Assembly: GCA_963775685.1 (NCBI GenBank) | Contig: CAVZJV010000014.1 | Span: forward strand, 2,144,001-2,208,000 | From: Candidatus Bathyarchaeota archaeon | Lineage (GTDB): Archaea; Thermoproteota; Bathyarchaeia; Bathyarchaeales; Bathycorpusculaceae | DNA: 64,000 nt | Direction of reading: 5' to 3' | Part shown: one piece after another, positions 2,160 through 19,932 of the stretch | Layout of the letters: every line of letters begins with the position of its first letter | Numbering within the stretch: the stretch's first letter is position 1 | Position numbers and translations under genes: made by a program | The notes under the pieces: generated by a model | Told to the model about the DNA's origin: nothing | Database searches by the model: none | Seen by the model: the letters and a program-made list of their open reading frames with translations, nothing else

Positions 2160-2535
2160 TCATTACCTCCACTTCCCCTGTTTTCTCTGTATCTTCGCAC
2201 CAAACCTGAAGCATCTTCACATATTTTGCAAACGTTAAGTTAGGAATAAGCCATTTTGGGCCAACCCAGCGGTAGGAGCAAGCGATTTTTTCATTTAGGT
2301 ATTTCATGATTAAAATTTCAAGTTGCCGAGCTGCTAAACCGAATATTTGTTCAAGGGCTTCGGAAAAGTCATCAATTCTATCAGGAATATTCTGTTTGGA
2401 GATCGCAAATTTGTTTGCAAGATGGAAGTATATTGATGCTTGTGCGGTTCTTCCTAACGTTAACAGTGCTTCATCGATTGTCTCCAGTATGATTTCATTA
2501 AATTTTTCATTTTTTCTTTCTGTTTTTCTATTCAT
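2122..2535 (-). CDS. Small protein of the type found upstream of TACK-archaeal sensor kinases (NitrOD5/DUF3227-like)
   Basis: Motif ILETIDEALLTLG...IYFHL...IPDRIDDFSEALEQIFG; overlaps the start of the PAS gene. Confidence 0.65.
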   Translation of the reverse strand: MNRKTERKNEKFNEIILETIDEALLTLGRTAQASIYFHLANKFAISKQNIPDRIDDFSEALEQIFGLAARQLEILIMKYLNEKIACSYRWVGPKWLIPNLTFAKYVKMLQVWCEDTEKTGEVEVMIDAGEQQEQQTR

Positions 2536-2946
2536 TCTTAGTCCGTGCCCTAAGCTGGTTGTGAATGCAGTCTTGGAATGAATAGTTAAATGAGTGAAAG
2601 CAAGTAAAGGCTTATGAAATCGTAATTCTGACTGCTAATTCACTAGAGCAAAAACTTTTTTAAAGGTGGTTTTACAGTTGGCACAATTGTAGCAGTTCAA
2701 TTTGTCAGGTACTGAAGTTAAGTTGCCACATCCCAATAGAATGTATAAACATGAGCGAGAACATAGAATTATTGTTGAATCTTATCGTTAAGCCAATTTA
2801 GTTTATTTCTGGTTACCCTTCTGGTTCATTCTTTTTCTTAAAGTGAACTCCAAGATTTTAGGTAACTTATACCAAAGTTACGAAAAAAATATTTAGGTTC
2901 GTTTCAAGTCGTTTTTATCTTTATTTTATTTAAACAAAATTTATTG

Positions 2947-2961
2947 GGTAATTTAGTTACC
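2947..2961. promoter_or_regulatory. Palindrome GGTAA-N5-TTACC, putative operator upstream of the beta-propeller gene
   Basis: GGTAATTTAGTTACC, with related GGTAAC/GTTAC half sites at ~2811-2881, upstream of a TTTATAAA box at ~2983. Confidence 0.35.
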
Positions 2962-3085
2962 AGTGACCACTTGCCACTCGATTTTATAAACTAAAACAAA
3001 GTAAAATAAGAAATGGTTAACCAAATTGGCATTTTAATGTTCTATTTGCTCGACCAAAAGAAAATTATAGGAGAGAAAAAAACGA

Positions 3086-5551
3086 ATGACAAAAAGTAAA
3101 ATGATTATTGCTATTGCACTAACAATTATGATGATTTTGCCTTCTATTGCTTTAATAACAGAAGTGGCAGGCGTTGATGTCGAAACTAGAATGTTCATAA
3201 GCGCAGTTCCAAATCCTATCGGTGTCGGCCAAAGAGTGAACGTACAATGGTGGCTTGCAATACCGAATCCTGTTGCTGGGACCTCTTGGGAAAACGTCAA
3301 AGTAATAATTGAAAACCCCGACGGGCAAATCCAGACTTTTGACAACTTAAAATCTGATATAAATGGAGGAGCATACATTTCCTTTGTCCCCGACAGAGTT
3401 GGGACATATAAAGTACATGCAAGCTTTCCTGGACAATGGGTAAACACCACCGGACCAAACGGTTACACTCGATATTACACGCCTCTTGAATCTAAAGTAG
3501 TCGAAGTCACTGTTCAAGAAGAACCAATTTCTGTCACGCCAGAATTGCCTTTTCCAAGCGAATACTGGACCAGACCAATAAACTCCGAAAACAGAGAATG
3601 GTTCCAAATTAGTGGTAATTGGTTAATGGGCAAAGGCGACAAGGATGCCGTAGCTTTTGAAGGCAGTGGCAACGCAAACTTCTACTCTACCGCACCAAAC
3701 ACAGGACACATAATGTGGACAAAACCACTACTTCCCGGAGGAATAGTTGGAGGAGAAATTGGCTATGGCGAAGCATACTACGGCGGACTCAATTACGAAC
3801 CCATGTTCAGACCACCAATAATAATGAATGGCGTACTTTATTACGAAACAGCCGAACCACCAAGATATGGAGTGATAGCCGTTGACGTGCGCACAGGAGA
3901 AACGATCTGGTACCAAAACATCTCTTACGGCTCAGGTTTTAACAGCTTAAGATTAGGTCAAGTATTCGACTATGACTCAGAGAATCAACATGGTAGCTTT
4001 GCGTATCTTTGGTTTAGCAGCGGCAGTACCTGGTACATGCACGACGCCTTCACCGGAAACTACATTCTAAGCGTAAGCGGCGTACCAAACGGTTACATTC
4101 AAATGGGGCCCAAAGGTGAGATTCTAATCTACAATGTTAACAATGCTCAAGGTTACGTACAGCTATGGAACTCATCCGCAATGCCCGGGTTATTTACCGC
4201 TTCAAACCCCTCAGAGAACCCAAATTCTGAGTGGCGACCAGAACAATCACAAGGACAAACGATTAACGGCTCGACTGGAATTCAATGGAAAGTTTCAGTA
4301 CCAACCGTAACTGGCGCAGGAAATGGCATCCAATGGCTTGATGAAAAATTAGGAGTATTTATCACAACCTCAACTGTTCAGCGGCCTACTGATGCATGGC
4401 CAACATTTGTTCACACAGCTTATAGTACCGAAACAGGCAATTTGCTTTGGACACAGAATCGAACCAATATAGGCGATATGAAATACCCCGTATACATCAA
4501 ACCCTACTCCGGAGTGTATGCACTTCCTTACAGAGAGAATAAACAATGGATCGGCTGGGATATGAAAACTGGCGATGAACTGTGGAGAGTTGATGGTCCC
4601 GAAGATGACTGGGGTATCTTTGATGTAGGAGGTGGCTTTGTTGGCGATATATTCTATACTGCAGGATTTGCTGGAGTTGTAACAGGTTACAATATTGAAA
4701 CCGGACAGAAAGTATGGGAGTTCTACAGCGGCAATTCAGGATTTGATACAACCTACGGTACTTGGGGATTCTACGGTGCATCAATAATTGCTGATGGAAA
4801 AATCTTCATAGCACACAATGAGCATTCACCTGACCAACCATTATGGCGAGGAATGAAGATGTGGGCTATCAACGCAACGACAGGAGAGGGCATATGGAAC
4901 ATTTCTGGAGCCTATCAAGGTGGAAGAAATGCCATGGGTGCCCTTGCCGACGGATTACTGGTGTCACACAATGCCATGGATAATCAAATATACGCATTCG
5001 GTAAGGGTCCAAGCACCACAACCGCTACAGCGTCGCCGAAGGTTACAACACGAGGAAACAGTTTGCTGATTGAGGGAACAGTTATCGATATAGCTTCTGG
5101 CACTTCACAAAATGAGCAAAGGGCTCGTTTTCCAAACGGTGTTCCAGCAGTCTCTGACAATAGCATGACTCCTTGGATGGAATACGTATACATGCAGAGG
5201 CCTCGTCCAACCGACGTTACTGGTGTTACAGTATTAATCGATGTCACCGATGCCAATGGCAACTATCGAAACATCGGCACAACCACAAGTGATGCCAGCG
5301 GCGCGTTTAGTTTCCAGTGGACTCCTGACATTGAAGGAAAATACACAGTTACTGCTACTTTCGCAGGATCTGAGTCTTACTGGCCATCATCAGCAGAAAC
5401 AAGCTTTGCTGTGGACTCAGCAGCTCCAACAGCATCTCCGTATCCAGAGATAACTTTACCTCCCACAGAAATGTACTTCGCAATCAGCACCATCGCAATT
5501 ATAATTGCAATATCAATAGTCGGCTTGTTATTACTCAGAAAAAGACCATAA
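3086..5551 (+). CDS. Secreted, membrane-anchored PQQ-like beta-propeller surface protein
   Basis: Signal peptide; N- and C-terminal Ig-like segments; repeated AVD..TGE.IW propeller motifs; C-terminal TM helix followed by RKRP. Confidence 0.85.
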   Translation: MTKSKMIIAIALTIMMILPSIALITEVAGVDVETRMFISAVPNPIGVGQRVNVQWWLAIPNPVAGTSWENVKVIIENPDGQIQTFDNLKSDINGGAYISFVPDRVGTYKVHASFPGQWVNTTGPNGYTRYYTPLESKVVEVTVQEEPISVTPELPFPSEYWTRPINSENREWFQISGNWLMGKGDKDAVAFEGSGNANFYSTAPNTGHIMWTKPLLPGGIVGGEIGYGEAYYGGLNYEPMFRPPIIMNGVLYYETAEPPRYGVIAVDVRTGETIWYQNISYGSGFNSLRLGQVFDYDSENQHGSFAYLWFSSGSTWYMHDAFTGNYILSVSGVPNGYIQMGPKGEILIYNVNNAQGYVQLWNSSAMPGLFTASNPSENPNSEWRPEQSQGQTINGSTGIQWKVSVPTVTGAGNGIQWLDEKLGVFITTSTVQRPTDAWPTFVHTAYSTETGNLLWTQNRTNIGDMKYPVYIKPYSGVYALPYRENKQWIGWDMKTGDELWRVDGPEDDWGIFDVGGGFVGDIFYTAGFAGVVTGYNIETGQKVWEFYSGNSGFDTTYGTWGFYGASIIADGKIFIAHNEHSPDQPLWRGMKMWAINATTGEGIWNISGAYQGGRNAMGALADGLLVSHNAMDNQIYAFGKGPSTTTATASPKVTTRGNSLLIEGTVIDIASGTSQNEQRARFPNGVPAVSDNSMTPWMEYVYMQRPRPTDVTGVTVLIDVTDANGNYRNIGTTTSDASGAFSFQWTPDIEGKYTVTATFAGSESYWPSSAETSFAVDSAAPTASPYPEITLPPTEMYFAISTIAIIIAISIVGLLLLRKRP

Positions 5552-5557
5552 GCCAAC

Positions 5558-5590
5558 AAGAGGACACAAATAACCTCTTTTCCCTTTTTT
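5558..5590 (+). terminator. Hairpin plus T-tract terminator
   Basis: AAGAGG...CCTCTT followed by TTCCCTTTTTT directly after the stop codon. Confidence 0.55.
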
Positions 5591-6075
5591 ATTGATGACT
5601 ACCTTTAAGGTTTTACTAATTTTTCTGGAAGGCTATAAGGTGATTTGCTGGTATCTTGTTAGGTGTCAAAGTTATGACTTTTACTAAACAAAACCAGAAA
5701 GGAAGATTCACTTTCCCGAAAGTTGGACGTAAGTTGTGACGGATGAGTAGCTAGTAAAAAATGCGGCGTGGTAAGTAAAATTGAAATGTGACCATACCTT
5801 AACTATTACGGGAAAGAATAAGCGGTTAATAAAAACAATTCACGGCTAAATTTACAGAGGAGCTAAATTTTGACGAAGAAGACTACACAAACCAAATTTG
5901 AAGAATATAAGCTGAGCGCTGTCAAAATTCCAGGCAAACTATTCGAACATTTCTATCGCCTCATAATTTCTGAAATTAAATATACAAATATGGCACTTTG
6001 CCAAATTGACCTTAAAGAAGCGGACTGGACGCAACATTTTTTTACAACGTGCTCTTTTTCTGGAGGAGACTGAAT

Positions 6076-7176
6076 ATGTCTGTTTTTGTGTTTGACCAAG
6101 AAACAATAGGAATGATTCGCTACATCCTGGCGCTCCAACGTTTTAAGGAGTATTCAGCTGGACCTCAAGGGCTAGACGAACATCTTTGTGTTCTGTCTTT
6201 CGAAAGGGTTCTGATCCAAACCGGGCTAAACTTTCCAAAGTTTCAGAAAGAAGCTCCGAGTGATATCCGAGCATATGATGTCATCCGATTCTTGGAGCAG
6301 AAAAGCCAGATAAGTGCTACAACAGCTAAGAAACTGAGAGAATACGTGGATTTTCATGACTCCCTATTATCTTCCTCCTCTCAAACCACCCAAAAAAAGA
6401 CTAATCCTAAAGCACAAGAAATTTTGCGGTTCCTTTGCACCGAAGCGGGTGTGGATCAAGATGAAGAACTCAAAAATAGAACATTTGAGGACATAGCAAC
6501 TCTGGGAACAAAGAAATCTTCCGAAAATGAGTACTTTGAGAAACTTGTTGAATCGGATTTTGACAATCTCGATAAACTCTATGAGAAATGTCCAACCTTG
6601 CAGTTGGAAATAGAAAAAAAATTGACGACCTCATTGCGAGGTGCAAAAATATCAGGGTTCACACCTAATACTGGAGGGATATGGTTACCTTTTGTTTCAC
6701 TCAAAGCACCTAATAATAGAACACATATTGATAAGGCAAGTATTGGAGTTGTCTTTACACCGGTCGATATTAGGATAGGCTTGGATTTCGGAAGTCAAGC
6801 TCACAAGTATAGGATAAGATATTATGAACTGCTCCTGAATGGAGAATTAATTAACGAGGTTGAATCTCTTAATAATAGAGATATGGGATACTGTCTCTGT
6901 GATACTTTTTGGCACTACCACATAAGAAACTTGCAATCTCTCCAATGGTGTCTTACTCTTTACAGTAGCACCAAGATGACTATTGAGGGTGCTATTGAAG
7001 AGACCAAACAACTCGAAGGAACCCCCTTGACGGCAAACAGGTACTTAATTAGTAAAGTGATTAGGAGACGACCGGAAGACTTTGCTTACATTATAAATGG
7101 GGTTGTCGATGAGATTGCGAAGACTTTAAACGAACTTTACCCCACGATGGCACTTATTAACAAAGCCGAAATCTGA
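6076..7176 (+). CDS. Hypothetical protein (366 aa)
   Basis: Long ORF with GGAGGAG RBS before the ATG at 6076. Confidence 0.75.
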   Translation: MSVFVFDQETIGMIRYILALQRFKEYSAGPQGLDEHLCVLSFERVLIQTGLNFPKFQKEAPSDIRAYDVIRFLEQKSQISATTAKKLREYVDFHDSLLSSSSQTTQKKTNPKAQEILRFLCTEAGVDQDEELKNRTFEDIATLGTKKSSENEYFEKLVESDFDNLDKLYEKCPTLQLEIEKKLTTSLRGAKISGFTPNTGGIWLPFVSLKAPNNRTHIDKASIGVVFTPVDIRIGLDFGSQAHKYRIRYYELLLNGELINEVESLNNRDMGYCLCDTFWHYHIRNLQSLQWCLTLYSSTKMTIEGAIEETKQLEGTPLTANRYLISKVIRRRPEDFAYIINGVVDEIAKTLNELYPTMALINKAEI

Positions 7177-7753
7177 ACACTTCGACGTGATGCAGACAGA
7201 AATGTTTTGAGCTTTGATTCTATTCCTTCGTAAGTTACCAATAATCTCAGCTTACGATGCATTGAACTTTAAAACCCTTTGGGAATTGGGTTGGAAACTT
7301 TGCTAATTAAACCAACGGCAAAGTTCCAAAAGCCCAAGATACTTAACATAAACGGGTAGAACGTACCATGAAGTATACATTCCGCTACTCAACTTACAAG
7401 ACGACAACTTCGAAGTAACAGAGGCAAGTACTTAGGAGGAAATAAGAAACTGAGTATAGCAGGATGGAGGAAGTACGATAAATAACAATTAACAGAACAT
7501 CAATATGCCCTTTTACAAAAAACCTGATAAGTTCTAAACATAGTACTTCTAATGTTATCGTATAAACGCAGCTGCATATGTAAAGCTTTTATAACGTCTC
7601 CCATGGCAACACCTAAGGCATCTCCCGCAAAACTTCTGCCGCAGATGTAAGCATAGTCCTTGTCCGGAAATAACATTTCTGCCTGAATGGATTTTCGGCT
7701 GATTATTAGAACTTTCAGATCTTTCGGACTGTGGATATTTGTTTGTTTTCGGC

Positions 7754-8101
7754 TCAGCAGGTTACGTGAATGATGGCGACCGCTTTTCTTTTTTCGTTTT
7801 CGATTTTGTCTATGATTTCTGGCGTCGGCATCGCGTATGTCTCGTATTCGTCCAGTATTTTCTGGGCTTTTTCAGTGATTGGCAAAGCTGCCTCATAGCC
7901 TGTTCCGACATAAACGACTTCTGGCTTCTCTTGCGACAAAAAATCCATTTCTTTCTCAGACAAAGGCGTATGGCCATAAATCGGTTTAAACTCTTTGGAT
8001 TTTTTCTTTTTTCGTTTTGAGATGTTACCGTCGACATGCATTATGATGTCTTCTTCATATTTGTGCCCGAATAATTTGACCGAACCAAAAGAGTCTTTCA
8101 T
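7754..8101 (-). CDS. Mth938-like (DUF498) domain protein
   Basis: SFGSV...YEED, PEVVYVGTG and C-terminal HVTC motifs. Confidence 0.8.
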   Translation of the reverse strand: MKDSFGSVKLFGHKYEEDIIMHVDGNISKRKKKKSKEFKPIYGHTPLSEKEMDFLSQEKPEVVYVGTGYEAALPITEKAQKILDEYETYAMPTPEIIDKIENEKRKAVAIIHVTC

Positions 8102-8206
8102 TCAACACACCACTGCCCATTGGGCACTATTATGAAGGCATCGACTCGATTTGAACCTATTCCCTCACAGTTGCCCCTGCAATGTACGCTGAATCAGGGC
8201 ATGCGC

Positions 8207-8340
8207 AAGGTCTTCCAAAATCTGGGGGGTATAGAGGGAGTGAGGCTTTACGGGTTTTAGCTTATCATCAGAACATATAAAAAATATAAAATAGATATCG
8301 ATTTGTATTTCTCTTTCTATCCCGTTTCACGACAAGCCTT
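8207..8340 (+). repeat. Cassette-boundary repeat R1 (134 bp)
   Basis: AAGGTCTTCC-N14-ATAGAG...TTATCATCAGAACATA-(A-rich)...TTCTAT...GACAAGCCTT; right arm degenerate. Confidence 0.85.
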
Positions 8341-8505
8341 CGCCATCGTTAGTCCATGAGCCACCGGCGACAGTAAACGTTGACAACGCGCATTTTGGAA
8401 AGAGGTTTCACAATTCATATCCTGAATATTATGCTGGCTTTCATAAGTGAGTTAAGTACCTTGAATCTTAGTTGATCATCAACAACAGAATTCGAGGAAA
8501 ATAGT

Positions 8506-8709
8506 TTGAGCCAACAGTTGGATGTTAAAGGCAGGAAAGAATTGGAAGCTCAGATGGCTACGGTTTTCGGCGAAAAAATCAAAGACCTATCTGTGGAACT
8601 ACAAGAAATACTATTAGATGACTTGGCAACCGCGTTTGAGAATAGGCTTATCGTATTCAAACGTTCCAAGGAAACTAGGCGAGAAGGTTGGAACCATGAG
8701 ACGGTCTAA
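8506..8709 (+). CDS. Small hypothetical protein
   Basis: GAGGA RBS, TTG start; overlaps the downstream wHTH gene. Confidence 0.65.
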   Translation: MSQQLDVKGRKELEAQMATVFGEKIKDLSVELQEILLDDLATAFENRLIVFKRSKETRREGWNHETV

Positions 8710-8989
8710 ACTGGAAATGTATGTTGATATATTGAATGTCTTGGCTCAAAGGGGGCCTTTGAAGTTGACTCACGTTATGTACAAGGCTAATGTCAACTGC
8801 GGCGTTCTGAAGGAGCACCTTGAATTCCTAATTAAGCAGGGACTGGTTGATGAGAGAATTATTCGAAGAGAAAGAGTAGTCTACGCGATTACGCAACGGG
8901 GCATTAATGTGCTCAAGCAGTTCAAAGAGCTCAAAGAAGTGCTTCCTATAATCGAAGAAACAAAAAACCAAACACCCTATATGTTCTAA
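8696..8989 (+). CDS. Winged-helix DNA-binding protein (ArnR1/HTH_45-like)
   Basis: MRRSKLEMYVDILNVL...LTHVMYKANVNC...YAITQRG. Confidence 0.85.
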   Translation: MRRSKLEMYVDILNVLAQRGPLKLTHVMYKANVNCGVLKEHLEFLIKQGLVDERIIRRERVVYAITQRGINVLKQFKELKEVLPIIEETKNQTPYMF

Positions 8990-9065
8990 CACTCCAATTC
9001 TTTTTCATATTCAACTGCGTAAACTGTCGACTAAGAGAACTCTGCCTTCTTCCTGCAAGCCTACC

Positions 9066-9205
9066 AAGGTTTTCCACGAATTTGTTCTCTTCTGGAGAGG
9101 AATGGGCTGTCTTAGTTTTATATTATCATCAGAACATAGAAAACAAAATAAATAAAATAAATTATGATTTGGCTTATCCTATGGCGTCCAATCTTGAAAG
9201 GCCTT
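9066..9205 (+). repeat. Cassette-boundary repeat R2 (140 bp)
   Basis: AAGGTTTTCC...TTATCATCAGAACATA-(A-rich)...TCCTAT-N13-GAAAGGCCTT. Confidence 0.85.
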
Positions 9206-9227
9206 GGTTATGGAGTGTTTGTGGCAT

Positions 9228-9557
9228 CTAATGTACACGCTTTGACAGGCGATTCTTCTGAGCATAAAGCAGTGGGGTTGTTTGATTTCGGGTTTCGTCT
9301 ATTATAGGTAACGCTTGTGTGAGTTCATGGAAATACTTCAGAACATTGATGCCGCGTTGAGTGATTGCGAAAACTACTCGCATTTTCGTGATCGTTCGTT
9401 TTTCGACCAGAGCTTGCTTAATTAAGAAGTCTAAGTAATCTGTAAGAACGTTACAGTTAACGTTAGCTTTGTACATGATATGTGTCAGCTTTGATGGACC
9501 TCTATGAGCTAACACGTTGAGAATGTCAACATAAATTATTAGTTTTGATCGTCTCAT
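9228..9557 (-). CDS. Winged-helix DNA-binding protein, paralog of 8696..8989
   Basis: MRRSKLIIYVDILNVLAHRGP...LTHIMYKANVNC...FAITQRG. Confidence 0.85.
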   Translation of the reverse strand: MRRSKLIIYVDILNVLAHRGPSKLTHIMYKANVNCNVLTDYLDFLIKQALVEKRTITKMRVVFAITQRGINVLKYFHELTQALPIIDETRNQTTPLLYAQKNRLSKRVH

Positions 9558-9920
9558 CTTTGAACCCTTTCCCTCTCACATAAACGTATATATCTGCATG
9601 TTATGTGGCTGATTGGTATAAGCTTTTGCTATTTTTCGTTGTTTAATTCAAGCAATTATGCTTTTTATTAACAAATTATGATATTAGTATGATAAAAAAG
9701 AATTAAATGATGCATAAATTAGTGAATAATTGATGAATTGCAATGTGACTTGTGACTGTGCCGTGCCTACTACAATATTTAATATGATTTTCAAAGAATA
9801 ACTAGAATTTTCCTTGCTCAAGGATAGAGGAAATGAGAATGAGAAAAAAGGACATTCAAGAAAGTAATTTCATTTTGAGTAAAGATCGTACACGAAAATG
9901 TTGTTGCTCATAAAACACGC

Positions 9921-10118
9921 ATGCCTATTATCAAGTGTGTCTGTGGCTTCGAAATTTTAGTTGTGCCTGATTTGAAGGCTATGGACCGAGCCATAAAAAA
10001 TCATGTTGCCAAACACAAGAAATCGGATTATGGTATAGTGTTTGATTCTTTGGAGGAGTTTTTGACAGAGCGGACTTTGATGGCAGCAAGCAAAATGAGT
10101 TTGCCAAATGTAAGTTAG
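9921..10118 (+). CDS. Small hypothetical C2H2-like zinc-binding protein
   Basis: CVCG...HVAKH; ends 9 bp before R3. Confidence 0.65.
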   Translation: MPIIKCVCGFEILVVPDLKAMDRAIKNHVAKHKKSDYGIVFDSLEEFLTERTLMAASKMSLPNVS

Positions 10119-10127
10119 TCGCTAGCC

Positions 10128-10260
10128 AAGGTCTTCCAAAATTTGGGCCCCATAGAGGAGAAGGTCTTCTGGAAAATATCTAATCATCAGAATATATAAA
10201 AATCAAATAAATTAAAATCAAACTTTTCTACTCTATACTCGCCAATTTTCGGCGGACCTT
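10128..10260 (+). repeat. Cassette-boundary repeat R3 (133 bp)
   Basis: AAGGTCTTCC-N14-ATAGAG...TAATCATCAGAATATA...CTCTAT-N14-GGCGGACCTT. Confidence 0.9.
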
Positions 10261-10287
10261 TGTTCCCGCAATGGTCAATTAATTGTG

Positions 10288-10515
10288 TCATGGCTTAAAG
10301 ATAATGCAAACGCCCATTTCATTGTTTATGCGAAACTTTAGGCCTTTTTTGGCGATGAAATTTTGCAAAGGCGGTCTGCATTCATCCTTTATTGCCAGTT
10401 CAAACTTGCCCTTGTTTTCTCTGACAAAAATGGCTGTTGGCTGCGCTAAGTCATTAGCGATAATCTCTTTTAGCAGCGCCACTGTCTGCTCTCTTTGCAA
10501 GTGTACGTTCCCCAA
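10288..10515 (-). CDS. Small hypothetical protein
   Basis: 75-aa ORF with upstream TATA-like TTATATA; ends 27 bp from R3. Confidence 0.6.
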   Translation of the reverse strand: MGNVHLQREQTVALLKEIIANDLAQPTAIFVRENKGKFELAIKDECRPPLQNFIAKKGLKFRINNEMGVCIIFKP

Positions 10516-10684
10516 GTCCTTTAGTTGTTGACTTTGTATATAACGATTTGGCGAATTTCAATGTACATTGTATCGATTTTAGCCAGAGATTTTTCCGGAA
10601 ATTTTCGGACGCGCCCACACATAGGATCCTAGCCTTTGGACGGATTTAACATTTCTACCCAAGTGGATTTTCAGTGGACGGGTT

Positions 10685-10885
10685 TTAGATTTTTCTTACA
10701 GTGGCTACGCGTCCGGTTGGCGTGTCGGTCATTTGCCATTCGAGCGTATCGCCTGGTTGTAAATTCAAAAATTCAGCTATTCCCTCGGGTATTGTTGCCC
10801 TCAAGCTTTTCGATTTTGGCCTGGCTATTGATGTTTTCGATTGAAGAGGCATGTGGCTTTTTCTCCGTTTACTTCTATGTTCCAT
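10685..10885 (-). CDS. AbrB/MazE/SpoVT-family DNA-binding protein
   Basis: SLRATIPEGIAEFLNLQPGDTLEW motif. Confidence 0.8.
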   Translation of the reverse strand: MEHRSKRRKSHMPLQSKTSIARPKSKSLRATIPEGIAEFLNLQPGDTLEWQMTDTPTGRVATVRKI

Positions 10886-10964
10886 AGATTATTTATTTCT
10901 ACCTATTTATTGGCAGATAAGTTTATATGTGTTTTTGACCATGCTTTATTGTAGGTAGATATGT

Positions 10965-11244
10965 ATGGCAACACAAGTCTTAACTCGAAAACAAATGGGC
11001 GACATGATTGCCCTGGAAGACATCGTTGAATTGAATCCTCAAACCTATTTCGTCAAGTCCCAGAGTTCGAGAGGTGGCTACTCTGTGACAAGGTTCGGGC
11101 AAAGTTGGACGTGCGATTGTCCCCGACTACCGGTACCGGGGAATCAAATGCAAGCGCATCCACGCTGTTGAAGCTCAAATTTCGCAGGTTTCCTCTAAAC
11201 AGGCATGGCCGTTTCCGATAGGGTTATGGGAGGCGACGCGATGA
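10965..11244 (+). CDS. SWIM zinc-finger protein (1-bp frameshift in the C-run at ~11121)
   Basis: YFVKSQS...Y.V...WTCDCP; removing one C gives DYRYRGIKCKRIHAV, and the stop then overlaps the next ATG (ATGA). Confidence 0.65.
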
Positions 11245-11456
11245 TCGAGAGCTGTCCCGACTGCGGATCGAAACATCTTAAGACTTTAGGAATAGAAAAG
11301 AGCGATCGGCTTGGCGACAACTGCACCGTTCTCGTTACAATGTGTAAGTGCAAAGACTGTGAGTGCGAGTTCCGCGAATTCATGGTCACCCACTGGCACC
11401 TCGCAATCACCAAGCACGACCGAATAGAGAGGCTGTTCATGGAGGCGCAACCTTGA
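11241..11456 (+). CDS. Small zinc-ribbon protein
   Basis: GGAGG RBS; CPDC...CKDC. Confidence 0.7.
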   Translation: MIESCPDCGSKHLKTLGIEKSDRLGDNCTVLVTMCKCKDCECEFREFMVTHWHLAITKHDRIERLFMEAQP

Positions 11457-11659
11457 CGTGCCCTGAGTGCCGCGAGATGAACTCCAAGGTTCTCGGATTC
11501 ACAGAATCAAGCAACCTACGAATTGCCCAATTCAAATGTAAGAGTTGTGGATGCGTCTATTCCGTCAAAACTCAAACGGAAATCAATGTCTTGGAACATG
11601 GCAAACGGGCTTGGATGATGGAAGTCTATCAAAAAAAAGAGGAGCGTCAAGCCCTATGA
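11453..11659 (+). CDS. Small zinc-ribbon protein
   Basis: GGAGG RBS, TTG start overlapping the previous stop; CPEC...CKSC. Confidence 0.7.
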   Translation: MTCPECREMNSKVLGFTESSNLRIAQFKCKSCGCVYSVKTQTEINVLEHGKRAWMMEVYQKKEERQAL

Positions 11660-11701
11660 AATCTCCTATAATAGGCTTGAACACATTTGCCGTAAATCCT
11701 G

Positions 11702-12295
11702 CTATGCTTTCCCCGCTTTGTCTTTAGGAGCTGAAGGAGCAACAATTATCTGGCCTTTTAGGACATCAAACGTAATGCTGTGGTCTTTTAAGAAATTAGA
11801 AACCGAGGCCTTGATATTCTTAAAATATCGATCCCATGTAGCTTTGTATCTATCAAGTTTTGCATTGATCATGGCGTCTCTAACTTCACCTTGCAGATAA
11901 AGGTTAATTGTCTCAGTTATGCAAGTGCTAGCTTTGGTTAAATCGTTTAGAAGATCAGAATTGTCAATTCTTGCAAAGGCAACATCTGTTTTGTCTTCGG
12001 GATTCGTAGAAAATAGAGATTTAGCCGAAATTATAACCGCAGGGCTACCTTTTATTTTGAAGGTTTTTATCACTTGCTTGTATTCTTCAGCCGCTAAACT
12101 CCATGCTCCAACGAAAATTGTCTTGCCGGCATCTTTTCCGTAATCCAATAACGCCTTTTTCAACTCCTCATATTTTATCATTCCTGGAATGTAGAAAACG
12201 TACACATCGCAGTCTTCCGGAATTTCAGAGGATAGTTTCAGGTCAGGAACGCTAATTTTCATTATTGTTTGAGGTTTAAAAAGTAGTTCAGGCAT
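11702..12295 (-). CDS. Hypothetical protein (possible thioredoxin-like alpha/beta fold)
   Basis: Intact 197-aa ORF starting ~60 bp from R4. Confidence 0.7.
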   Translation of the reverse strand: MPELLFKPQTIMKISVPDLKLSSEIPEDCDVYVFYIPGMIKYEELKKALLDYGKDAGKTIFVGAWSLAAEEYKQVIKTFKIKGSPAVIISAKSLFSTNPEDKTDVAFARIDNSDLLNDLTKASTCITETINLYLQGEVRDAMINAKLDRYKATWDRYFKNIKASVSNFLKDHSITFDVLKGQIIVAPSAPKDKAGKA

Positions 12296-12357
12296 TTCAA
12301 CCGCCGGTTTTGGATATGATGTTTTCTTAATTTAAGCCTTTGCAGACCTTAAATTAT

Positions 12358-12492
12358 AAGGTCTTCCAAAAATTTACCCCCATAGAGGGAAGAAGGTCTT
12401 TCCGGTTTAAGCTAATGCTCAGAACACAAAAATATAAAAAAATATAATATTGAATGAACCTGCTCTATACCCCTCCGTCGGTGGAAGGCCTT
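12358..12492 (+). repeat. Cassette-boundary repeat R4 (135 bp, best conserved)
   Basis: AAGGTCTTCC-N14-ATAGAG...TAATGCTCAGAACA...CTCTAT-N14-GGAAGGCCTT. Confidence 0.9.
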
Positions 12493-12892
12493 ATTTGGTG
12501 AAGCTGTCGGGTTGAGCGTCTTCTTCAAGCAAGCTTGTATACAAGCGAAATTTTTCATCGTAAATGTCGGCCAAATGCGCATCATCCCAGATTTTTGATC
12601 GGCTCCTGACGGCTGCGTGCCAAAACTTCTGCTCTTCTTCATATCCGGCAACGTAAACTTCAAGAAAATAGAAGACTTCGCATTCTTGATTCTCTATCTT
12701 AGGAATGAAGGCATAAGTGACAATGCCTTGTTCGTTGTCCGAAGTAAATTTCATCGCGTTTTGGATGCTGGCAGACATTGTTTTTAGCGTTTCTTTGATT
12801 GCTGTTTTATGGCTTTTGGGAATCTTGTTTTTCTTGTTCCAGAGGATTTCGCAGTCTAAAGACAGAGAACTCTTCCATGTGGCATCTTGCAC
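12491..12892 (-). CDS. Hypothetical protein filling the first (integrase-proximal) cassette
   Basis: GAGGA RBS and GTG start ~21 bp inside R5; the TAA stop overlaps the end of R4. Confidence 0.7.
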   Translation of the reverse strand: MQDATWKSSLSLDCEILWNKKNKIPKSHKTAIKETLKTMSASIQNAMKFTSDNEQGIVTYAFIPKIENQECEVFYFLEVYVAGYEEEQKFWHAAVRSRSKIWDDAHLADIYDEKFRLYTSLLEEDAQPDSFTK

Positions 12893-12913
12893 ATTAGTGG
12901 TTCCTCGGGATAT

Positions 12914-12970
12914 AAGGCCTTCCAACAATTGGGGGGGTATAGAGGGAAGAAGGTCTGTCTGGTTAGCCTA
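12914..12970 (+). repeat. Half repeat R5 (left arm only), candidate attI-like insertion site
   Basis: AAGGCCTTCC-N15-ATAGAGGGAAGAAGGTCTGTCTGGTTAGCCTA matches the left half of R3/R4, then diverges into the integrase upstream region. Confidence 0.8.
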
Positions 12971-13073
12971 CGGCCTCTTTTTGAGCTTATTTTCTTGCCC
13001 ATTTCTTACCATAGGGACGACTTGTACAGTATTAATTCAGATTGCTTTGGGCTTTCCTTTGAGGTAATCCTGA

Positions 13074-14279
13074 ATGAGCTTTCTCGCCTGCCCAACCTGC
13101 AAATCATTGCGACTGTTCAAGAACGGCAAGCGCAAGCTTCGGACTGGCGAGAAGGTTCAAACTTACATATGCCGCGAGTGCGGGAAACGGTTTGCTGAAC
13201 CTCGGCCGCAACAGGTTTCTCCTGAGAGGTCAATAAATAGCCCAGGCGGTACATCGATAGATAGTCAAATATGCGCTTTAAAGGAAGCGAAAAATTTGGT
13301 CTTTGCACAAAAAACCAAGATTTGTGCGGGAGAAAAACAACCACATGAACCAGCAAAGTTATTGCCACCAGACGCAGTAAGCTTAATCACACAGTTGATG
13401 GCATGGCTTGAGAAAGAATGCTATGCCCACGAAAATAGCTACCCCGCCTTTCTACGTTCGCTTGTTAATCGCGGCGCCAACCTAAGGGACCCCGAAAACG
13501 TCAAAGAAATCATCGGGAAAATGAATTGCAAGAACGGCACCAAGATGCTGTATAGCTATGCCTACAAAGCCTTGGCAGATATGCTGAAAATACCTTTTGA
13601 GCGACCTAAGAACCTGAAACAAGACGACTTTGACCCTACATTCCTGATGAGTCTGAACTTGACGCAGTGATAAACGCAGCACTAAAAAAAAGAATGGCTA
13701 CCTACCTGCAAACACTCAAAGAAACTTTCGCTGACCCAGGAGAGGCTTTACGAATCAAATGGATTGACATCAATGAAAAAAATAGCACAGTCAAAATCAA
13801 CTACCCTATAAAAGAACACAATACGCGGACGCTCGAGGTCTCAAACAAGCTAATTGCCATGCTCAACGCTTTACCCAAGACATCCGAACTTATTTTTCCC
13901 ATAAAATACTCCAGTATGCTATATACTTACGTCCGCCTGCGTAAGCGTGTCGCTGAGTTGCAGCAAAACCCTCGTATTCCATCAGTCGAGCTTAAGGTCT
14001 TTCCGCCATTGGGGAGGCACAATGCTTGCTTGGAAGTCCAACGGCAATGTTTTGATAGTGAAAAATATGTTTGGACATAAGAACGTAAAAAACACGATGA
14101 GGTATATCGGAAAGATACATTTCAAGGATGACGACTTTGAAACAACAGCCGCAACTACTCTCGAGGAGGTCCTTGCATTAGGAAAAGCTGGTTGGATAAA
14201 GTATGATGAAATCACCGTCGGCGGCACAATTGTACACGTTTGCAAGAAACCCAAGAAGTTCCAAAGCGCTGCGGTCTAA
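13074..14279 (+). CDS. Tyrosine recombinase/site-specific integrase with N-terminal zinc ribbon (two 1-bp frameshifts, ~13635 and ~13994)
   Basis: N-terminal CPTC...CREC; box I-like LKETFADPGEALRIKWIDI; box II SFRHWGG...FGHKNVKNTMRY; three overlapping ORFs join on single-base corrections. Confidence 0.85.
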
Positions 14280-14401
14280 AAAAACCGCTCAGAATCTCGA
14301 TATATACTATTAAGGTCAAAATAGATATCATTAAGCTTTTATACGTATGTTGATGAGAGATGTTAAAAAGAAGATGAGCGCTTCCGAGAGGTAAAGACTA
14401 A

Positions 14402-17400
14402 ATGCCCTACATAAAAAAAATCGAGTTAAAAGGCTTTAAGTCTTTTGGACCCCAAACAGTAAAAGTTAATCTAGATAAGGGGTTCACGGCCATAACTGGT
14501 CCAAACGGAAGCGGCAAAACCAACATCATGGACGCACTCCTCTTCTCGTTGGGCGAATTGAGCACCAAAAGGCTCCGTGCCGAAAACTCGGCTAAACTGA
14601 TTTTTCATGGTTCCGAGAAAGCTGGGCAAGAAAAAGCAAAAATGGCAAAGGTAGTTGTCCAATTCGACAACACTGATGGCACCATGCCTGTTGATACGAC
14701 TACCGTAACGATTTCAAGAGAAGTATACCGCAACGGGCAAAGTATTTACCGCTTAAACGGGCGCAGAATGTCCCGCACACACATTACCGAAACCCTCTCC
14801 ATGGCTGCAATCAGTAGCATGAGCCAAAACATCATCCCCCAGGGCACAATCACGCGTTTAACCGACCTAACCTCTATGGAAAGGCGAAAAATCATTGAAG
14901 ATCTCATCGGCATAGCTCAGTACGACTCTGAAAAGACTGAGGCGGAAGAGAAACTTCGTGCTGCCGATATATCCATCCGTACCGCCATGGGCAGAATCGA
15001 CGAAGTTCAAAAACGCCTCGACGACCTTGAAAGGGAACGCAACCAACTCCTTCGCTACAATTTTATCCAAGCCGAAATCCGAAAATTTCAAGCCGTCAAA
15101 ATCTCAAACGACGTTGCCCAGCAAAACACAAAAATTAGCGAAAACACAGCCCAAGCCCTGAAGGTCAAAGAGAGAGTTGACAAGCTAAAAGAACAACGGG
15201 ACCTACGAAGGAGCAAACGTCATACAATTGAGGGTGACTGGAGAAAGCTCAGCGGTGAAGGCCTTGAACAAGGAGGCTCAGAAGTTCTCAAGGTCCAAAT
15301 AAAGATTGGGGAGCTAAAATCCAATTTAACTGAATTAACCACCAAGATTAGTTCGGGGCAGTCGAGCCTAGAAAGCTTCAGACGTGTTAGAGAAAACAAC
15401 CTAAACCAACACGACACGTTGCAGAAAGAAATAAGGGAAAACAGGCTTAGAATCCGCTCCTTCCGTACGGAGCTCGAAAAACTAAAGGATCAGTTGGCAG
15501 AAAAACAAGTAGCACATGAAGGGCTAGCAAAGGAAACTGCCCAGCTCTGGGAGGGACTAGACGGCAACAACCAGCAAATCCGCGCTCTAGATAACCAGAC
15601 CCAAGAGCACCTTAAGCGACTGGCATACTTGCGTTCTGAATACAAACAAGACAAAGCAGCCTTACGCCTCTGCGCTGGCAGACTCAAGAACCTGAGCGTA
15701 CGCAAAGAGAAATTCCAGTCAAGCCAAGTTGAAATCGAAAAATCCTTGTCTGAACTTGAGCAGGTGCAGCGTGACCAGAGAGCCCAATTCAAAAACCTTG
15801 AACATACAATCGAACGCAAAAAACTTCAAAAAGAAACTGTTCAAAAAGAAATTGCGGAAGCAGAAAAAATCGCTAGCTCCGCAAAAGACGCCGTAGTAGA
15901 ATTCGCGACACAAAGAGACCTTGCCGCAACCATCGCTGCCGAAGAAAAAGCCCTGCGAGGAATTGAAGAAATGGGCGATGTGGGCGCGATTTCGGGTATT
16001 CATGGTCGGCTTCGCAACTTGATAAAGCTCGATAAGAGCTTCAAGAAAGCCATCGAAGCAGCCGCCACAGGCTGGCTAGACGCACTGGTCGTAAAGGACG
16101 TCGACATTGCCTTCACCTGCACAGAAACACTGCGTCGCATGAAACTTGGAAGAATCAAAATCATTCCCCTCCAAGGCGCAATAACCATCAAAAACAAAGC
16201 ACCCCCCAAACGCGAAGGCGTCATGGGGCCCCTCTCTAGTTTCATGAAGTATGATGGCGAATTTGAACTAGCGGTTAATTATGTGTTCGGAGATACAATA
16301 GTTGTCTCAAACGACAAGACCGCTTTTGCCTTATCAAATGAAGGTTACCGCGCTGTCACTACAAGTGGCGACCTCTATGAGCCAGGCGCTTTTGAGGGAG
16401 GTTACTACCGTGCACCAATCGACTTCTCTACAATAATCCCCAGTGAAGGCGCACTAAAGAGCCTTGACGAAGCTGTAAAGGCGCTCCAGACCCACCTGAT
16501 CCAACGCGGCACGGACATTGTAAGCATCGAAGAAGAGCTTGAACACGCCAAGATTGAGATAACCCGGCTAGTTGACTCTATCGCCACCTTAGACAGGGAA
16601 ATCATTAGGGTAAAGAGGGGCGTTAAACGTACTCAGTTCAACATTCGCCACATCGACAAGTACGGCGGCAAACTTGAACGCGAAGCAGCCGCTTACAAAG
16701 GACGCATGGCTATGTTCCGCAACGAACGCAACTCCATTCAGGGAAGCCTCAAAAAAATCCACACTGAAATCGCAAGCTTGAGGTTGAAAACTGACCTAGC
16801 ACACATCCAGGAGATGGAGGTTCAGCGGGAAAAGCTCGGTGAAGAAGCCAACACTCTTCGGCAAAGGTTAGGGTCAGTGCAAACGGAAATATCTACTCAC
16901 CAATCCCAGTTTGACAGGGTTTTGCGGGTGAGTTACAAGAACACCAAGATAACGCTTTCAAGAATGGATCAGCAGCAAGGTAAACTTGCAAAAGAAGTGG
17001 CAGATGCACTGCTTGAACGCGACACAATCAAAAAAGAAGCCGAGGAGCTGGAGAAGAGTCGCGTGGAGCTTTCAAATGCTGTGCTCTCTGCGCGTGAGGA
17101 ATCCAAAAAATTCACCAGCCAAATCGATAGCATCGACGGGGAGTTGCGGCTTTTGGACACCGAGTACGAGCAGGCTGACAGGCTTCTAAATCAACTTAAC
17201 CTGGGTATAGAAACCACTCAGATGCGTCTTCAGCAGCTTCAAGGGCAACTTAAACAGTTCGGCTATGAGCAGCCCTTAGAAACTAGTCCTCGGCAGGTGC
17301 AGGAGGCAGAAACAACCATTCGCATGATGCAGTTTGAAATGGAACGCATCGGCGCCATAAACCAGCTGGCGGCCCAGCATTACTCTGACCAGATTTCACG

Positions 17401-18674: not shown

Positions 18675-19311
18675 ACAGAGCCCAACCCAGAACCCTGCGG
18701 TTGAGGTTGCGCATGAAGTCGACAGAAAAGCTCATCTTTTGGCACTGTTAGAGGCAGCCCTCTATGTTGCTGGTCGCCCATTAGACCTAAACGAGCTGTG
18801 TCAGGTTGTTGGCAGCCGCTCCAAGAAGAGGACCCAAACCTACATTGAAGTGCTCATGAAAGAATATGCTACACGGAATACGGCTTTGGAGCTGTTGGCG
18901 CTTAAGAATGAACGCTACGTTTTACAGGTAAAAGCAGAATTTACTCATTTGATTAAGAAACTGGTAAATCGCCCCTTGCTCTCGTCAGGTCCACTTAAAA
19001 CACTCTCCTACATCGCCTACCGCCAACCCATCTCCCAGAAAAGAGTAATAGAGGTTCGGGGACAACACGCCTACGGACACGTCAAGTTACTCAAGGACAT
19101 GGGCTTAATATTGTCTGAGAGAAGTGGGCGCACCTTGGCACTGAAAACTACTGATTACTTCTCTGACTACTTCGGCTTGACTACGGATACTTCGATCATG
19201 AAGAAGGACCTCAAGAAGATTTTCGGAGAAGCCATAAAAGAGGATTTGGCAGGGCGTCAACAAAAAGAAAGAGTGCAAGAAAACCAAGAAAATAATGTCG
19301 AGGACGCGTAG
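18646..19311 (+). CDS. scpB: SMC-Scp complex subunit ScpB
   Basis: LEAALYVAGRPL and LKTLSYIAYRQPI...IEVRG...TTDYFSDYFGL. Confidence 0.93.
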   Translation: MLEKPNRTVEQSPTQNPAVEVAHEVDRKAHLLALLEAALYVAGRPLDLNELCQVVGSRSKKRTQTYIEVLMKEYATRNTALELLALKNERYVLQVKAEFTHLIKKLVNRPLLSSGPLKTLSYIAYRQPISQKRVIEVRGQHAYGHVKLLKDMGLILSERSGRTLALKTTDYFSDYFGLTTDTSIMKKDLKKIFGEAIKEDLAGRQQKERVQENQENNVEDA

Positions 19312-19539
19312 GCCACTTCTAAATACTAATAACCAGCGCAACCAACAAACAGTCGGAATCTAAGAACATTAAACGCGATTAGTCTGTCGTCGCGTTAGTT
19401 GTTGTCGTGGTAATAGAGGCTTTTCTTTCGCATAGTAAACAAAAACCCAAACACAATACGCAACGAAGGTCTTTTGACGGATATGTTTATATTGAAATCT
19501 ATGGTTTTAGTTGCTACTCGAATCAAGGATAGGTAGAAT

Positions 19540-19932
19540 ATGTCTACTCATAGTAGTTTACGCAAAAGAAAGCTCACAGGCGGCAAAAAACGCGCTTACC
19601 GTAGCAAGAAGAAGTATGAAGCAGGTGGGTTCCCAGCTGAAACAATTTTGGGTGAGCCAAAACGCAAGGTCACCAGAGGCATGGGCGGAAACACCAAAAT
19701 CAAAGTCTTAACCGACAAATTTGCCTCCGTTACTGACCCAAAAAGCGGCAACACTGAAAAAGCTGAAATTACCCGAGTCGTCAAAAACGCCGCAAACGTC
19801 GATTATAACCGACGGGGCGTCATAACAAAAGGCGCAGAAATCGAAACCTCACTGGGCTTAGCAAAAGTTACTAGCCGACCCGGCAGCGACGGCATAATTA
19901 ACGCTGTCCTGATCAGCAAAGAAAAAGTCTAA
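19540..19932 (+). CDS. rps8e: 30S ribosomal protein S8e
   Basis: RKLTGGK...KKKYEAG...NVDYNRRGVITKGAEIET...VTSRPG. Confidence 0.97.
   Translation: MSTHSSLRKRKLTGGKKRAYRSKKKYEAGGFPAETILGEPKRKVTRGMGGNTKIKVLTDKFASVTDPKSGNTEKAEITRVVKNAANVDYNRRGVITKGAEIETSLGLAKVTSRPGSDGIINAVLISKEKV

Follow-up and report, generated by a model that had tools for sequence, protein, structure and literature searches.

The region described here is a stretch of 64 kb (hereafter the window; C14:2144001-2208000, C## denoting a contig) in the 3.06-Mb assembly of a Candidatus Bathyarchaeota archaeon. Upstream of the gene smc it carries an array of a repeat of ~138 nt, whose copies separate blocks of small genes and are followed by a broken gene for a tyrosine recombinase (Table 1; positions without a contig refer to the window, G### designates a genome and L### a locus). 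A profile search of the whole window (nhmmer, E<=1e-3) yielded exactly five copies, all on the plus strand, namely four full ones (R1 to R4, E from 1e-23 to 1e-33) and one half copy (R5h), and a repeat finder and a MAFFT alignment agreed on this count. An earlier note on this DNA had listed four full copies and one half copy in a single orientation; its coordinates lie within 1-3 nt of the nhmmer matches, and its statement that the window holds no other full copy stands as well. As argued below from sequence comparisons, the repeat is probably the recombination site of a site-specific system, and the arrays built from it an integron-like cassette system in one genus of Bathyarchaeia.

A full repeat starts with a 5' arm composed of an outer box (AAGGYCTTCC), a near-palindrome (CCAAAATYTGG) and an inner box (TATAGAGG), as established from the alignments. 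The arm is followed by a second, direct copy of the outer box, the core TTATCATCAGAAC, an A/T-rich stretch and a 3' arm which is an imperfect inverse of the 5' arm, 77% of cells being paired in both arm helices. The outer box occurs three times per unit. The attC sites of integrons end in RYYYAAC and GTTRRRY. No such ends were seen when our sites were checked by eye; the consensus repeat ends are CCAAGGYCTTCC...GGAAGGCCTTGG, and none of the four full window copies ends in GTTRRRY, so the former view that these repeats are not attC-like can be kept.

The family is not limited to this locus. The genome contains 14 full and 5 partial copies, 19 in total, found in the window and at six further places. 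Genome-wide copies in random orientation had been named in the earlier note as the mark of a dispersed repetitive element; copies do occur at several places, but they are clustered and co-oriented rather than random. One of these places, cluster B, is a rearranged paralogue of the window array, to which window positions 9118-10238 match at 86% and 12360-12952 at 90% (blastn). A single cluster B repeat (B2) stands where the window has R3, the 2.1-kb block 3 and R4, and this repeat is chimeric, its 5' part resembling R3 and its 3' part R4. Likewise, R2 and the cluster B repeat B3 (C14:1524828-1524971) have nearly identical 3' halves while their 5' halves differ, the homology beginning at 9118.

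Other genomes were scanned with a sequence-only covariance model, covering 36 further genomes of the genus and 24 genomes from 20 other genera of the order; the genomes were sampled, some are incomplete, and those of the same genus are not independent samples. The repeat was present in 14 of the 36 congeneric genomes, at ~2-20 matches per genome, and the model found it in none of the 24 genomes from other genera. Altogether, 109 copies over 38 loci were collected, and neighbouring pairs located at most 5 kb apart were co-oriented in 65 of 67 cases; co-oriented arrays, as proposed before, are thus the rule. The gaps between repeats had a median of 719 nt, with 22 of 67 measuring 300-480 nt. Among the 62 inter-repeat stretches of the first 27 loci, 22 fell within the same range, and these mostly carried one open reading frame (ORF) of ~100-130 aa from varied families. 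Examples are the arrays of G016:C5, which has seven copies within 5.3 kb, of G002:C3, with eight within 12 kb, and of G020:C65, with five.

Several families of cassette genes were distinguished: F8 (proteins of 128-146 aa without known family), F4 (DUF5752), F10 (Lrp/AsnC ligand-binding domain), F1 and F39 (CxC proteins), F2 (HTH_45 regulators) and F15 (labelled Alba-like by eye). F1, F2, F4, F8, F10, F15 and others recurred with changed order and neighbours; cassette genes were found on both strands, and some blocks were several kb long. Arrays occupied at least three orthologous places: upstream of smc (window; G023:C2), beside the 3' end of a putative tRNA of ~75 nt followed by thioesterase and ABC-transporter genes (cluster C; G023, G001 and G002), and directly behind an integrase gene (cluster B; G016:C5). 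Locus comparisons showed that gene content at these sites, the smc-adjacent one included, differed between genomes, as had been anticipated. The ~75-nt stretch, which was also present in L068 and L069, is identical in three species and lies right after the last repeat; by eye it was interpreted as a minus-strand tRNA gene. Together with its flanking arms, the F8 block was 90-95% identical among the window, cluster B and two other species, while smc and the ABC-transporter genes were only 72-83% identical between species. F8 cassettes being more alike than the genomes that carry them, this points to their recent movement between species.

A separate arrangement was seen in L074 (G001:C3), where two copies of a 195-aa gene (903-1764 and 18870-19742), 96% identical and 18 kb apart, were related to window 11702-12295 (family F25) and flanked by partial repeats in opposite orientation. 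The inverted flanking arms suggested a transposon. This was rejected, as the outer boxes face the gene, and the F25 gene is better described as a block between two back-to-back partial repeats.

Three analyses agree in placing the putative exchange point at or just after the central core ATCATCAGAAC. In a flank-sharing test of 89 aligned copies, 30 pairs shared only the upstream flank and 18 only the downstream flank. The former pairs were more similar than background by 8-15 points over positions 1-50, the latter by 9-31 points over positions 71-143. Among partial copies, 7 of the 16 that retain the 5' side end at positions 68-78, and 5 of the 12 that retain the 3' side begin at positions 50-61. 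Two independent half sites, at the end of cluster C and in G002:C9, break right after ATCATCAGAAYATA; the former matches the full copy at C14:1469208 with 93% identity through ATCATCAGAACATA and is unrelated beyond. At both of these loci a single gene is embedded in non-repeat DNA in the order core plus 3' arm, gene, 5' arm plus core, as would result from the opening of a one-site circle at its core. Finally, the first repeats behind 16 integrase genes (see below) showed 86-91% likeness over positions 1-30 and ~90% in the core, and from position 81 on fell to background (47-58%). For the F4 cassette that stands alone in G002:C9, no clean empty site was found; its right flank is conserved in many genomes, but the locus varied in all those compared. 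A conserved 65-nt tRNA-looking stretch lies near one cassette.

The recombinase linked to these repeats was first found as a small ORF by cluster B matching Phage_integr_3. An uninterrupted gene in G020:C65 encodes a 280-aa protein that matches PF16795 with 35.8 bits (cut-off 27). Its structural model (mean predicted local distance difference test score, pLDDT, of 77.9) retrieved with Foldseek archaeal XerA (E 1.3e-4) and the catalytic domain of the integrase of Sulfolobus spindle-shaped virus 1 (SSV1; template modelling score 0.68-0.70, normalised to target). The protein is a tyrosine recombinase of the SSV/Phage_integr_3 kind, and its seven invariant residues (R133, K178, R221, H231, R244, H253 and Y254) constitute a candidate catalytic set. 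Searches against the sequences of solved structures, with the single protein and with a profile, gave no match; neither the integrase nor the pieces of the window pseudogene matched any NCBIfam integrase model at E<=0.1, and a scan of a collection of viral contigs revealed no relative of the integrase.

A scan of one genome per prokaryote species yielded 23 integrase loci, six of which were already known from the genomes examined. Records titled Bathyarchaeota or Bathyarchaeia accounted for 21 of them; one further record was titled 'uncultured archaeon' and one named an acidobacterium. The acidobacterial locus (L098), an integrase plus repeat in a metagenome-assembled genome (MAG), lies on a contig of 5 kb, and owing to this short length it probably reflects a binning error and not a transfer. 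A co-oriented repeat began at most 61 nt after the integrase match in 16 of the 23 loci (at most 10 nt in 14), and two or more co-oriented repeats stood at and beyond the integrase in 10 of these 16. The reading frame closes with K/E-G/V-L-Q/R-stop (KGLQ-stop or similar) in 13 of the 16, its stop codon falling within the 5' outer box. The repeat starts 4-5 codons before the integrase stop, so that the presumed exchange point would lie ~60-75 nt past the stop. Six linked genes had no in-frame stop and were uninterrupted. At two loci a repeat was also present ~150 nt upstream of the gene, placing the integrase between two sites, which suggests that the integrase itself may be a cassette. All seven genomes of the genus with an integrase match of at least 57% identity carried the repeat, and 7 of the 22 genomes lacking the repeat had only matches of at most 54%. 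In L087 (G020:C65; 434-535 and 1192-2031), the uninterrupted integrase gene is followed by a 93-aa zinc-finger ORF, after which integrase codons 241-274 occur once more, fused to a repeat. The arrangement has the appearance of an insertion of ~750 nt where gene and repeat meet.

The recombinase pseudogene next to the window array is of another type. Its PF00589 scores (19.1 and 14.1 bits) were both under the cut-off, and its zinc domain is of the IS1/IS1595 type. Intact paralogues, 30-40% identical, occur elsewhere in the genome, away from repeats. Fragments of this family follow the last repeat in three other arrays (L056, L060 and L061); further fragments lie at the far array end in G023 and inside the array in G002, and in G067 only a C-terminal part is left behind a repeat. 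The family was broken or fragmentary in all six arrays in which it was observed, and in relatives it occupied either array end. As no intact copy stands beside any array examined, we read the window pseudogene as an eroded neighbour, probably a bystander and not the enzyme acting on the repeats. Its first frame change (13660-13670) falls on a run of eight A and may be a homopolymer sequencing error; real decay is favoured by the second break and by those seen in other assemblies. The earlier note was therefore right in seeing a tyrosine recombinase beside the array, albeit one broken in three frames and below the Pfam cut-off, but its proposal that this gene drives the array is not supported: the gene is a degraded member of another, zinc-ribbon family, whereas the linked enzyme is of the PF16795 type and absent from the array. 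Similarly, the linkage of arrays to one clade of tyrosine recombinases does recur across the genus, with a family different from the one in the window.

A model can be proposed in which the site consists of two imperfectly inverted arms around the core TTATCATCAGAAC and the A/T-rich stretch, and the enzyme is the 280-aa SSV-type recombinase, whose gene has its last four codons and stop within the first site's 5' outer box. Small DNA circles, each with one site and one to few genes, would enter a resident site by recombination at the core or immediately after it, the integrase cutting and joining the two. Integration of such a one-site circle would leave co-oriented sites on both sides of the incoming genes, hence the co-oriented arrays. 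Cassette arrays would accumulate in this manner at few places, i.e. upstream of smc, beside the tRNA gene and behind the integrase. The window array would represent an array without its own integrase, of which no trace was detected there, comparable to integrase-less clusters of attC sites in bacteria, and would have been served by the enzyme acting in trans; its cassettes (F1/F2 and F8) also occur in integrase-linked arrays. Since this genome holds only broken copies of the integrase (two, near cluster B), the window array may now be frozen, or may be served by an enzyme from outside.

Several observations weigh against this model. Recombination is here inferred from sequence, and no recombination product was seen. 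Homology ends detected by BLAST within repeats scatter over positions ~15-45 and ~75-120 and do not define a single crossover base, the statistical profiles resolve only ~10-20 nt, and nhmmer alignments are prone to stop at the best-conserved stretch, so that partial copies ending near the core are overcounted. Homologous recombination between repeats would also average to a central switch. As for the enzyme, 6 of the 14 repeat-bearing genomes of the genus had no integrase match, 7 of the 23 integrase loci lacked an adjacent repeat, and many linked integrases, including both copies in this genome, are broken. Genes running both ways and blocks of several kb may perhaps be remnants of larger integrated elements. 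Among public reads, five runs contained 5% of the sampled words, and four of these were compared as contigs at 85% likeness. Depth peaks on R1 and R4, divergence at repeat edges, joints from R3 to R4 and from R3 to R5h, and joints that go back were all observed, every one of them in metagenome contigs of related organisms; as these contigs come from other organisms, repeat joints there prove nothing.

The main alternative explanation is that the arrays are graveyards of plasmids or viruses which integrated serially at one attachment (att) site, beside a tRNA gene or a previously inserted element as in tycheposon islands, and were then trimmed by deletions, the repeats being att sites and the small blocks leftovers and not self-moving units. 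We consider this unlikely, for the reason that one gap in three is a single-gene unit (300-480 nt) whose boundaries are kept across genomes, and that such a unit together with its arms can be 90-95% identical between species while its neighbours differ. Such compact, conserved single-gene units argue against leftovers of deletion, and so do the isolated cassettes flanked by two half sites sharing the core and the lack of replication or capsid genes among ~30 annotated block ORFs. What speaks for serial integration are the fragments of two integrase families at array ends, the array type abutting the 3' end of a putative tRNA gene, the cassette near the 65-nt tRNA-looking stretch, the blocks of 2-4 kb with genes of archaeal mobile-element type (winged-helix, zinc-ribbon and AbrB-like), and the variable island (2535, or 5551 in some relatives, to 14332) in which the window array resides.

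A dispersed element resembling miniature inverted-repeat transposable elements (MITEs) or repetitive extragenic palindromic (REP) sequences, or else a regulatory intergenic repeat, could also generate imperfectly inverted arms, copies between genes at several genome places and homology break points at more than one base, if transposition or tandem duplication were combined with shuffling of genes by homologous recombination. Such an origin appears quite improbable given the orientation of neighbouring pairs, the low copy number per genome and the integrase stop codon embedded in the first copy at 13 loci. Of the features of MITEs, terminal inverted repeats are present and target-site duplications are absent: none of the 83 full copies had a flanking direct repeat of at least 6 nt, and direct repeats of 4 nt flanked 15 of 83 against a control mean of 20 (counts for 4-5 nt being below control), in agreement with the earlier note. 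No autonomous partner with the same ends was found, one insertion sequence (IS) having been examined and no full transposase survey made. That element, IS5/IS1182-like and situated near the half copy at C14:466589, encodes a 486-aa transposase and was rejected as the source of the repeat because it has its own, unrelated inverted ends of 41 nt; related copies lie in or near the arrays of three other genomes. Still far less probable is a structured small RNA, or a terminator or leader repeated between genes. R3 and R4 do fold better than shuffled sequences (z-scores -2.31 and -2.62), but R1 and R2 fold no better than shuffles (-0.24 and -0.40), the location of the repeat with respect to gene starts and ends varies, and RNAalifold gave no consensus structure. 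The covariation score of arm pairing was reached by shuffles in 324 of 500 trials, with no compensatory change, and Rfam at E<=1 returned no relevant match over 7000-15000; a PrfA match at 9764-9862 (29.6 bits, gathering score 88) was dismissed as irrelevant. On the grounds of covariation, RNAalifold and Rfam, we read the repeats as protein-bound sites in DNA and not as RNA. The same z-scores agree with the former description of the R1 and R2 arms as the most degenerate, although R1, despite its weak hairpin, is the best match to the family profile.

Turning to the window itself, the array consists of four blocks (Table 1). These mostly contain small unrelated genes, as initially described, except that blocks 1 and 2 carry paralogous HTH_45 genes in inverted orientation. 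The two genes face each other across R2 (8684-8850 and 9403-9569), with 71% complementary DNA. In block 2, which is 86% identical to its counterpart in cluster B of the same genome, the F2 gene is paired with an F1 gene, and this pair recurs as one unit in L020, L055, L056, L057 and L058. An HTH_45 gene and a small CxC protein gene are a recurrent divergent pair in the arrays of several genomes, and they could encode regulators or directionality factors of the system. Part of block 3 is 72% identical to C14:2283164-2284121. The F8 protein of block 4 scored 0.90-0.92 in the ESM Atlas, with low recognition. The DNA left of R1 and block 3 each carry one copy of a 58-nt direct repeat (71% identical), which has no relation to the main family.

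The smc locus was examined in the 29 best-matching of 54 other genomes with a match. The repeat was present at most 1.5 kb upstream of smc in four of the 29. At most of the remaining loci, similarity to the window ends ~70 nt before smc (14332), and the upstream neighbour is homologous either to window 1342-2535 or to the final part of the 821-aa gene (3086-5551). From where this similarity ends, it follows that the array and the pseudogene sit in a variable island. The stretch between the gene at 1342-2535 and the smc promoter region (2535-14332) varies across species of the genus, the left limit of the island being 2535, or 5551 in some relatives. It also holds the 821-aa protein, which looks secreted and whose paralogues flank arrays at seven loci. 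ARAGORN detected no tRNA in window 1-30000.

Table 1 Features of the window array and further copies of the repeat family in the genome
Feature	Position	Strand	Remarks
58-nt direct repeat, copy 1	7639-7696		left of R1
R1, full copy	8205-8343	+	nhmmer E 1.1e-33; alignments; 5' arm (outer box AAGGTCTTCC, inner box TATAGAGG), central core ATCATCAGAAC, A/T-rich stretch, inverted 3' arm
Block 1	8344-9062		
HTH_45 winged-helix gene (F2) in block 1	8618-8989	+	PF14947, 59.5 bits
67-aa ORF overlapping the block 1 HTH_45 gene	8506-8709		no family match
R2, full copy	9063-9208	+	nhmmer; alignment
Block 2	9209-10125		
HTH_45 gene in block 2	9228-9557	-	PF14947, 57.7 bits
65-aa CxC protein gene (F1) in block 2	9921-10118	+	
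R3, full copy	10126-10264	+	nhmmer E 2.8e-29
Block 3	10265-12357		2.1 kb, small ORFs
58-nt direct repeat, copy 2	10615-10672		inside block 3
AbrB/MazE-like ORF in block 3	10685-10885	-	below Pfam cut-off
Zinc-ribbon ORFs in block 3	10965-11659	+	
197-aa protein gene (F25) in block 3	11702-12295	-	no family match
R4, full copy	12358-12495	+	nhmmer E 2.3e-31
Block 4, one F8 gene	12491-12928	-	no Pfam or NCBIfam family
R5h, half copy (5' arm only), last site of the array	12913-12964	+	nhmmer E 1.8e-6; profile positions 4-54
Tyrosine recombinase pseudogene, N-terminal zinc ribbon	13074-14279	+	frames 13074-13670, 13667-14080, 13947-14279
Right edge of variable island	14280-14332		~70 nt upstream of smc (smc from 14332), common to most genomes of the genus
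Half copy	C14:466589		
IS5/IS1182-like element	C14:467103-468751		L024 4103-5751
Single copy	C14:1469208		
Cluster B, three copies	C14:1523231-1524971	+, -, -	
Broken integrase copy	C14:1525019-1525533		near cluster B
Broken integrase copy	C14:1527635-1528462		near cluster B
Single copy	C14:2284798		
Cluster C, seven copies	C14:2383928-2392880		co-oriented
~75-nt putative tRNA gene	C14:2392990-2393065	-	G000; right after last repeat
Single copy	C5:119887		

Among known systems, the repeats share with MITEs, REP doublets forming hairpins (REPINs) and the Vibrio cholerae repeats the nature of short palindromic intergenic sequences. The Vibrio cholerae repeats turned out to be the attC sites of a superintegron and offer a historical parallel. 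From MITEs and REPINs our repeats differ in the lack of end duplications, the common orientation and the lack of a transposase partner as far as the one IS goes. The dif modules of Acinetobacter plasmids, to be grouped with elements exploiting Xer recombination, are bounded by 28-nt XerC/D sites of alternating orientation and depend on host Xer enzymes. Here too discrete gene modules lie between tyrosine-recombinase sites in varied contexts, but these sites measure 138 nt, share one orientation and are linked to a dedicated integrase.

Canonical IntI/attC integrons have been reported in archaeal MAGs (PMC9668308). Features common to integrons, sedentary chromosomal ones included, and to the present system are co-oriented arrays of imperfect palindromic sites (~60-140 nt) separating small unrelated cassettes; a tyrosine recombinase at one end of some arrays, many others being integrase-less (clusters of attC sites lacking integrases, CALINs); and sites more alike within a group than the genes, with cassette content varying between relatives. 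Unlike in integrons, the integrase is PF16795-like and, having no NCBIfam integrase match, does not belong to the IntI clade by those models. It is co-oriented with the sites and has its stop in the first of them, and there is no divergent attI/Pc arrangement. In addition, cassette genes run in either direction, and exchange apparently takes place at the centre and not at the 3' end of the site. The sites have hairpin potential as DNA, R1 and R2 folding no better than shuffled sequences, and no evidence points to folding as single strands. The integron layout seen by the earlier note is therefore recovered in part, in the co-oriented arrays and mostly single-gene cassettes, but not in the orientation of the integrase and of the genes.

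PF16795 integrases are described as 'suicidal' SSV-type enzymes with the site inside the gene (PMC8371274). The enzyme in question shares with these, as they are portrayed in that source, the Phage_integr_3 domain, the catalytic fold and an attachment site overlapping the integrase gene. The overlap is limited here to the last 4-5 codons, so that the gene is not split, copies of the site form arrays with blocks of single genes, no relative was found on the viral contigs scanned, and the hosts, judged from record titles, are mesophilic Bathyarchaeia of soil and bog. In the tycheposon islands of Prochlorococcus, elements accrete at tRNA genes and leave partial tRNA repeats, according to the account in bioRxiv 10.1101/2020.12.28.424599. 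As in that account, elements with tyrosine recombinases pile up at few sites (one array here abuts a putative tRNA gene), and repeated att motifs, broken integrases and strain-variable cargo are left behind. The tycheposons described there use a partial-tRNA motif and are elements of several kb with replication modules, whereas a dedicated, non-tRNA site of 138 nt and many single-gene units of ~400 nt are found in our arrays. The present system combines the logic of integrons, the enzyme family of SSV and the island behaviour of tycheposons, and it fails the defining features of each. At the level of literature listings and abstracts, we found no description of such arrays in Bathyarchaeia.

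To our knowledge, integrons are the only described system that stockpiles single promoter-independent genes as cassettes by site-specific recombination. Whether the Bathyarchaeia arrays represent a second, independently evolved platform of integron type, with an SSV-family integrase, exchange of single genes at the core, several landing places and passage between species, is in our view evenly balanced. Of the cassette-capture platform proposed in the earlier note, the boundaries of exchangeable cassettes and the co-oriented arrays are retained, while the adjoining recombinase and parts of the integron layout are not. If the proposal is correct, cassette capture would have originated on more than one occasion, as shown by an analogue whose integrase belongs to another family and whose site is unrelated. 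Such an analogue would also link the 'suicidal' SSV integrases, in which the site lies inside the gene, to a form with the site moved to the very end of the gene, and the compact pair of recombinase and site (280 aa and ~138 nt) might serve as a tool. Bathyarchaeia are an abundant uncultured group of soils and sediments, and the arrays would offer a handle on gene flow among them.

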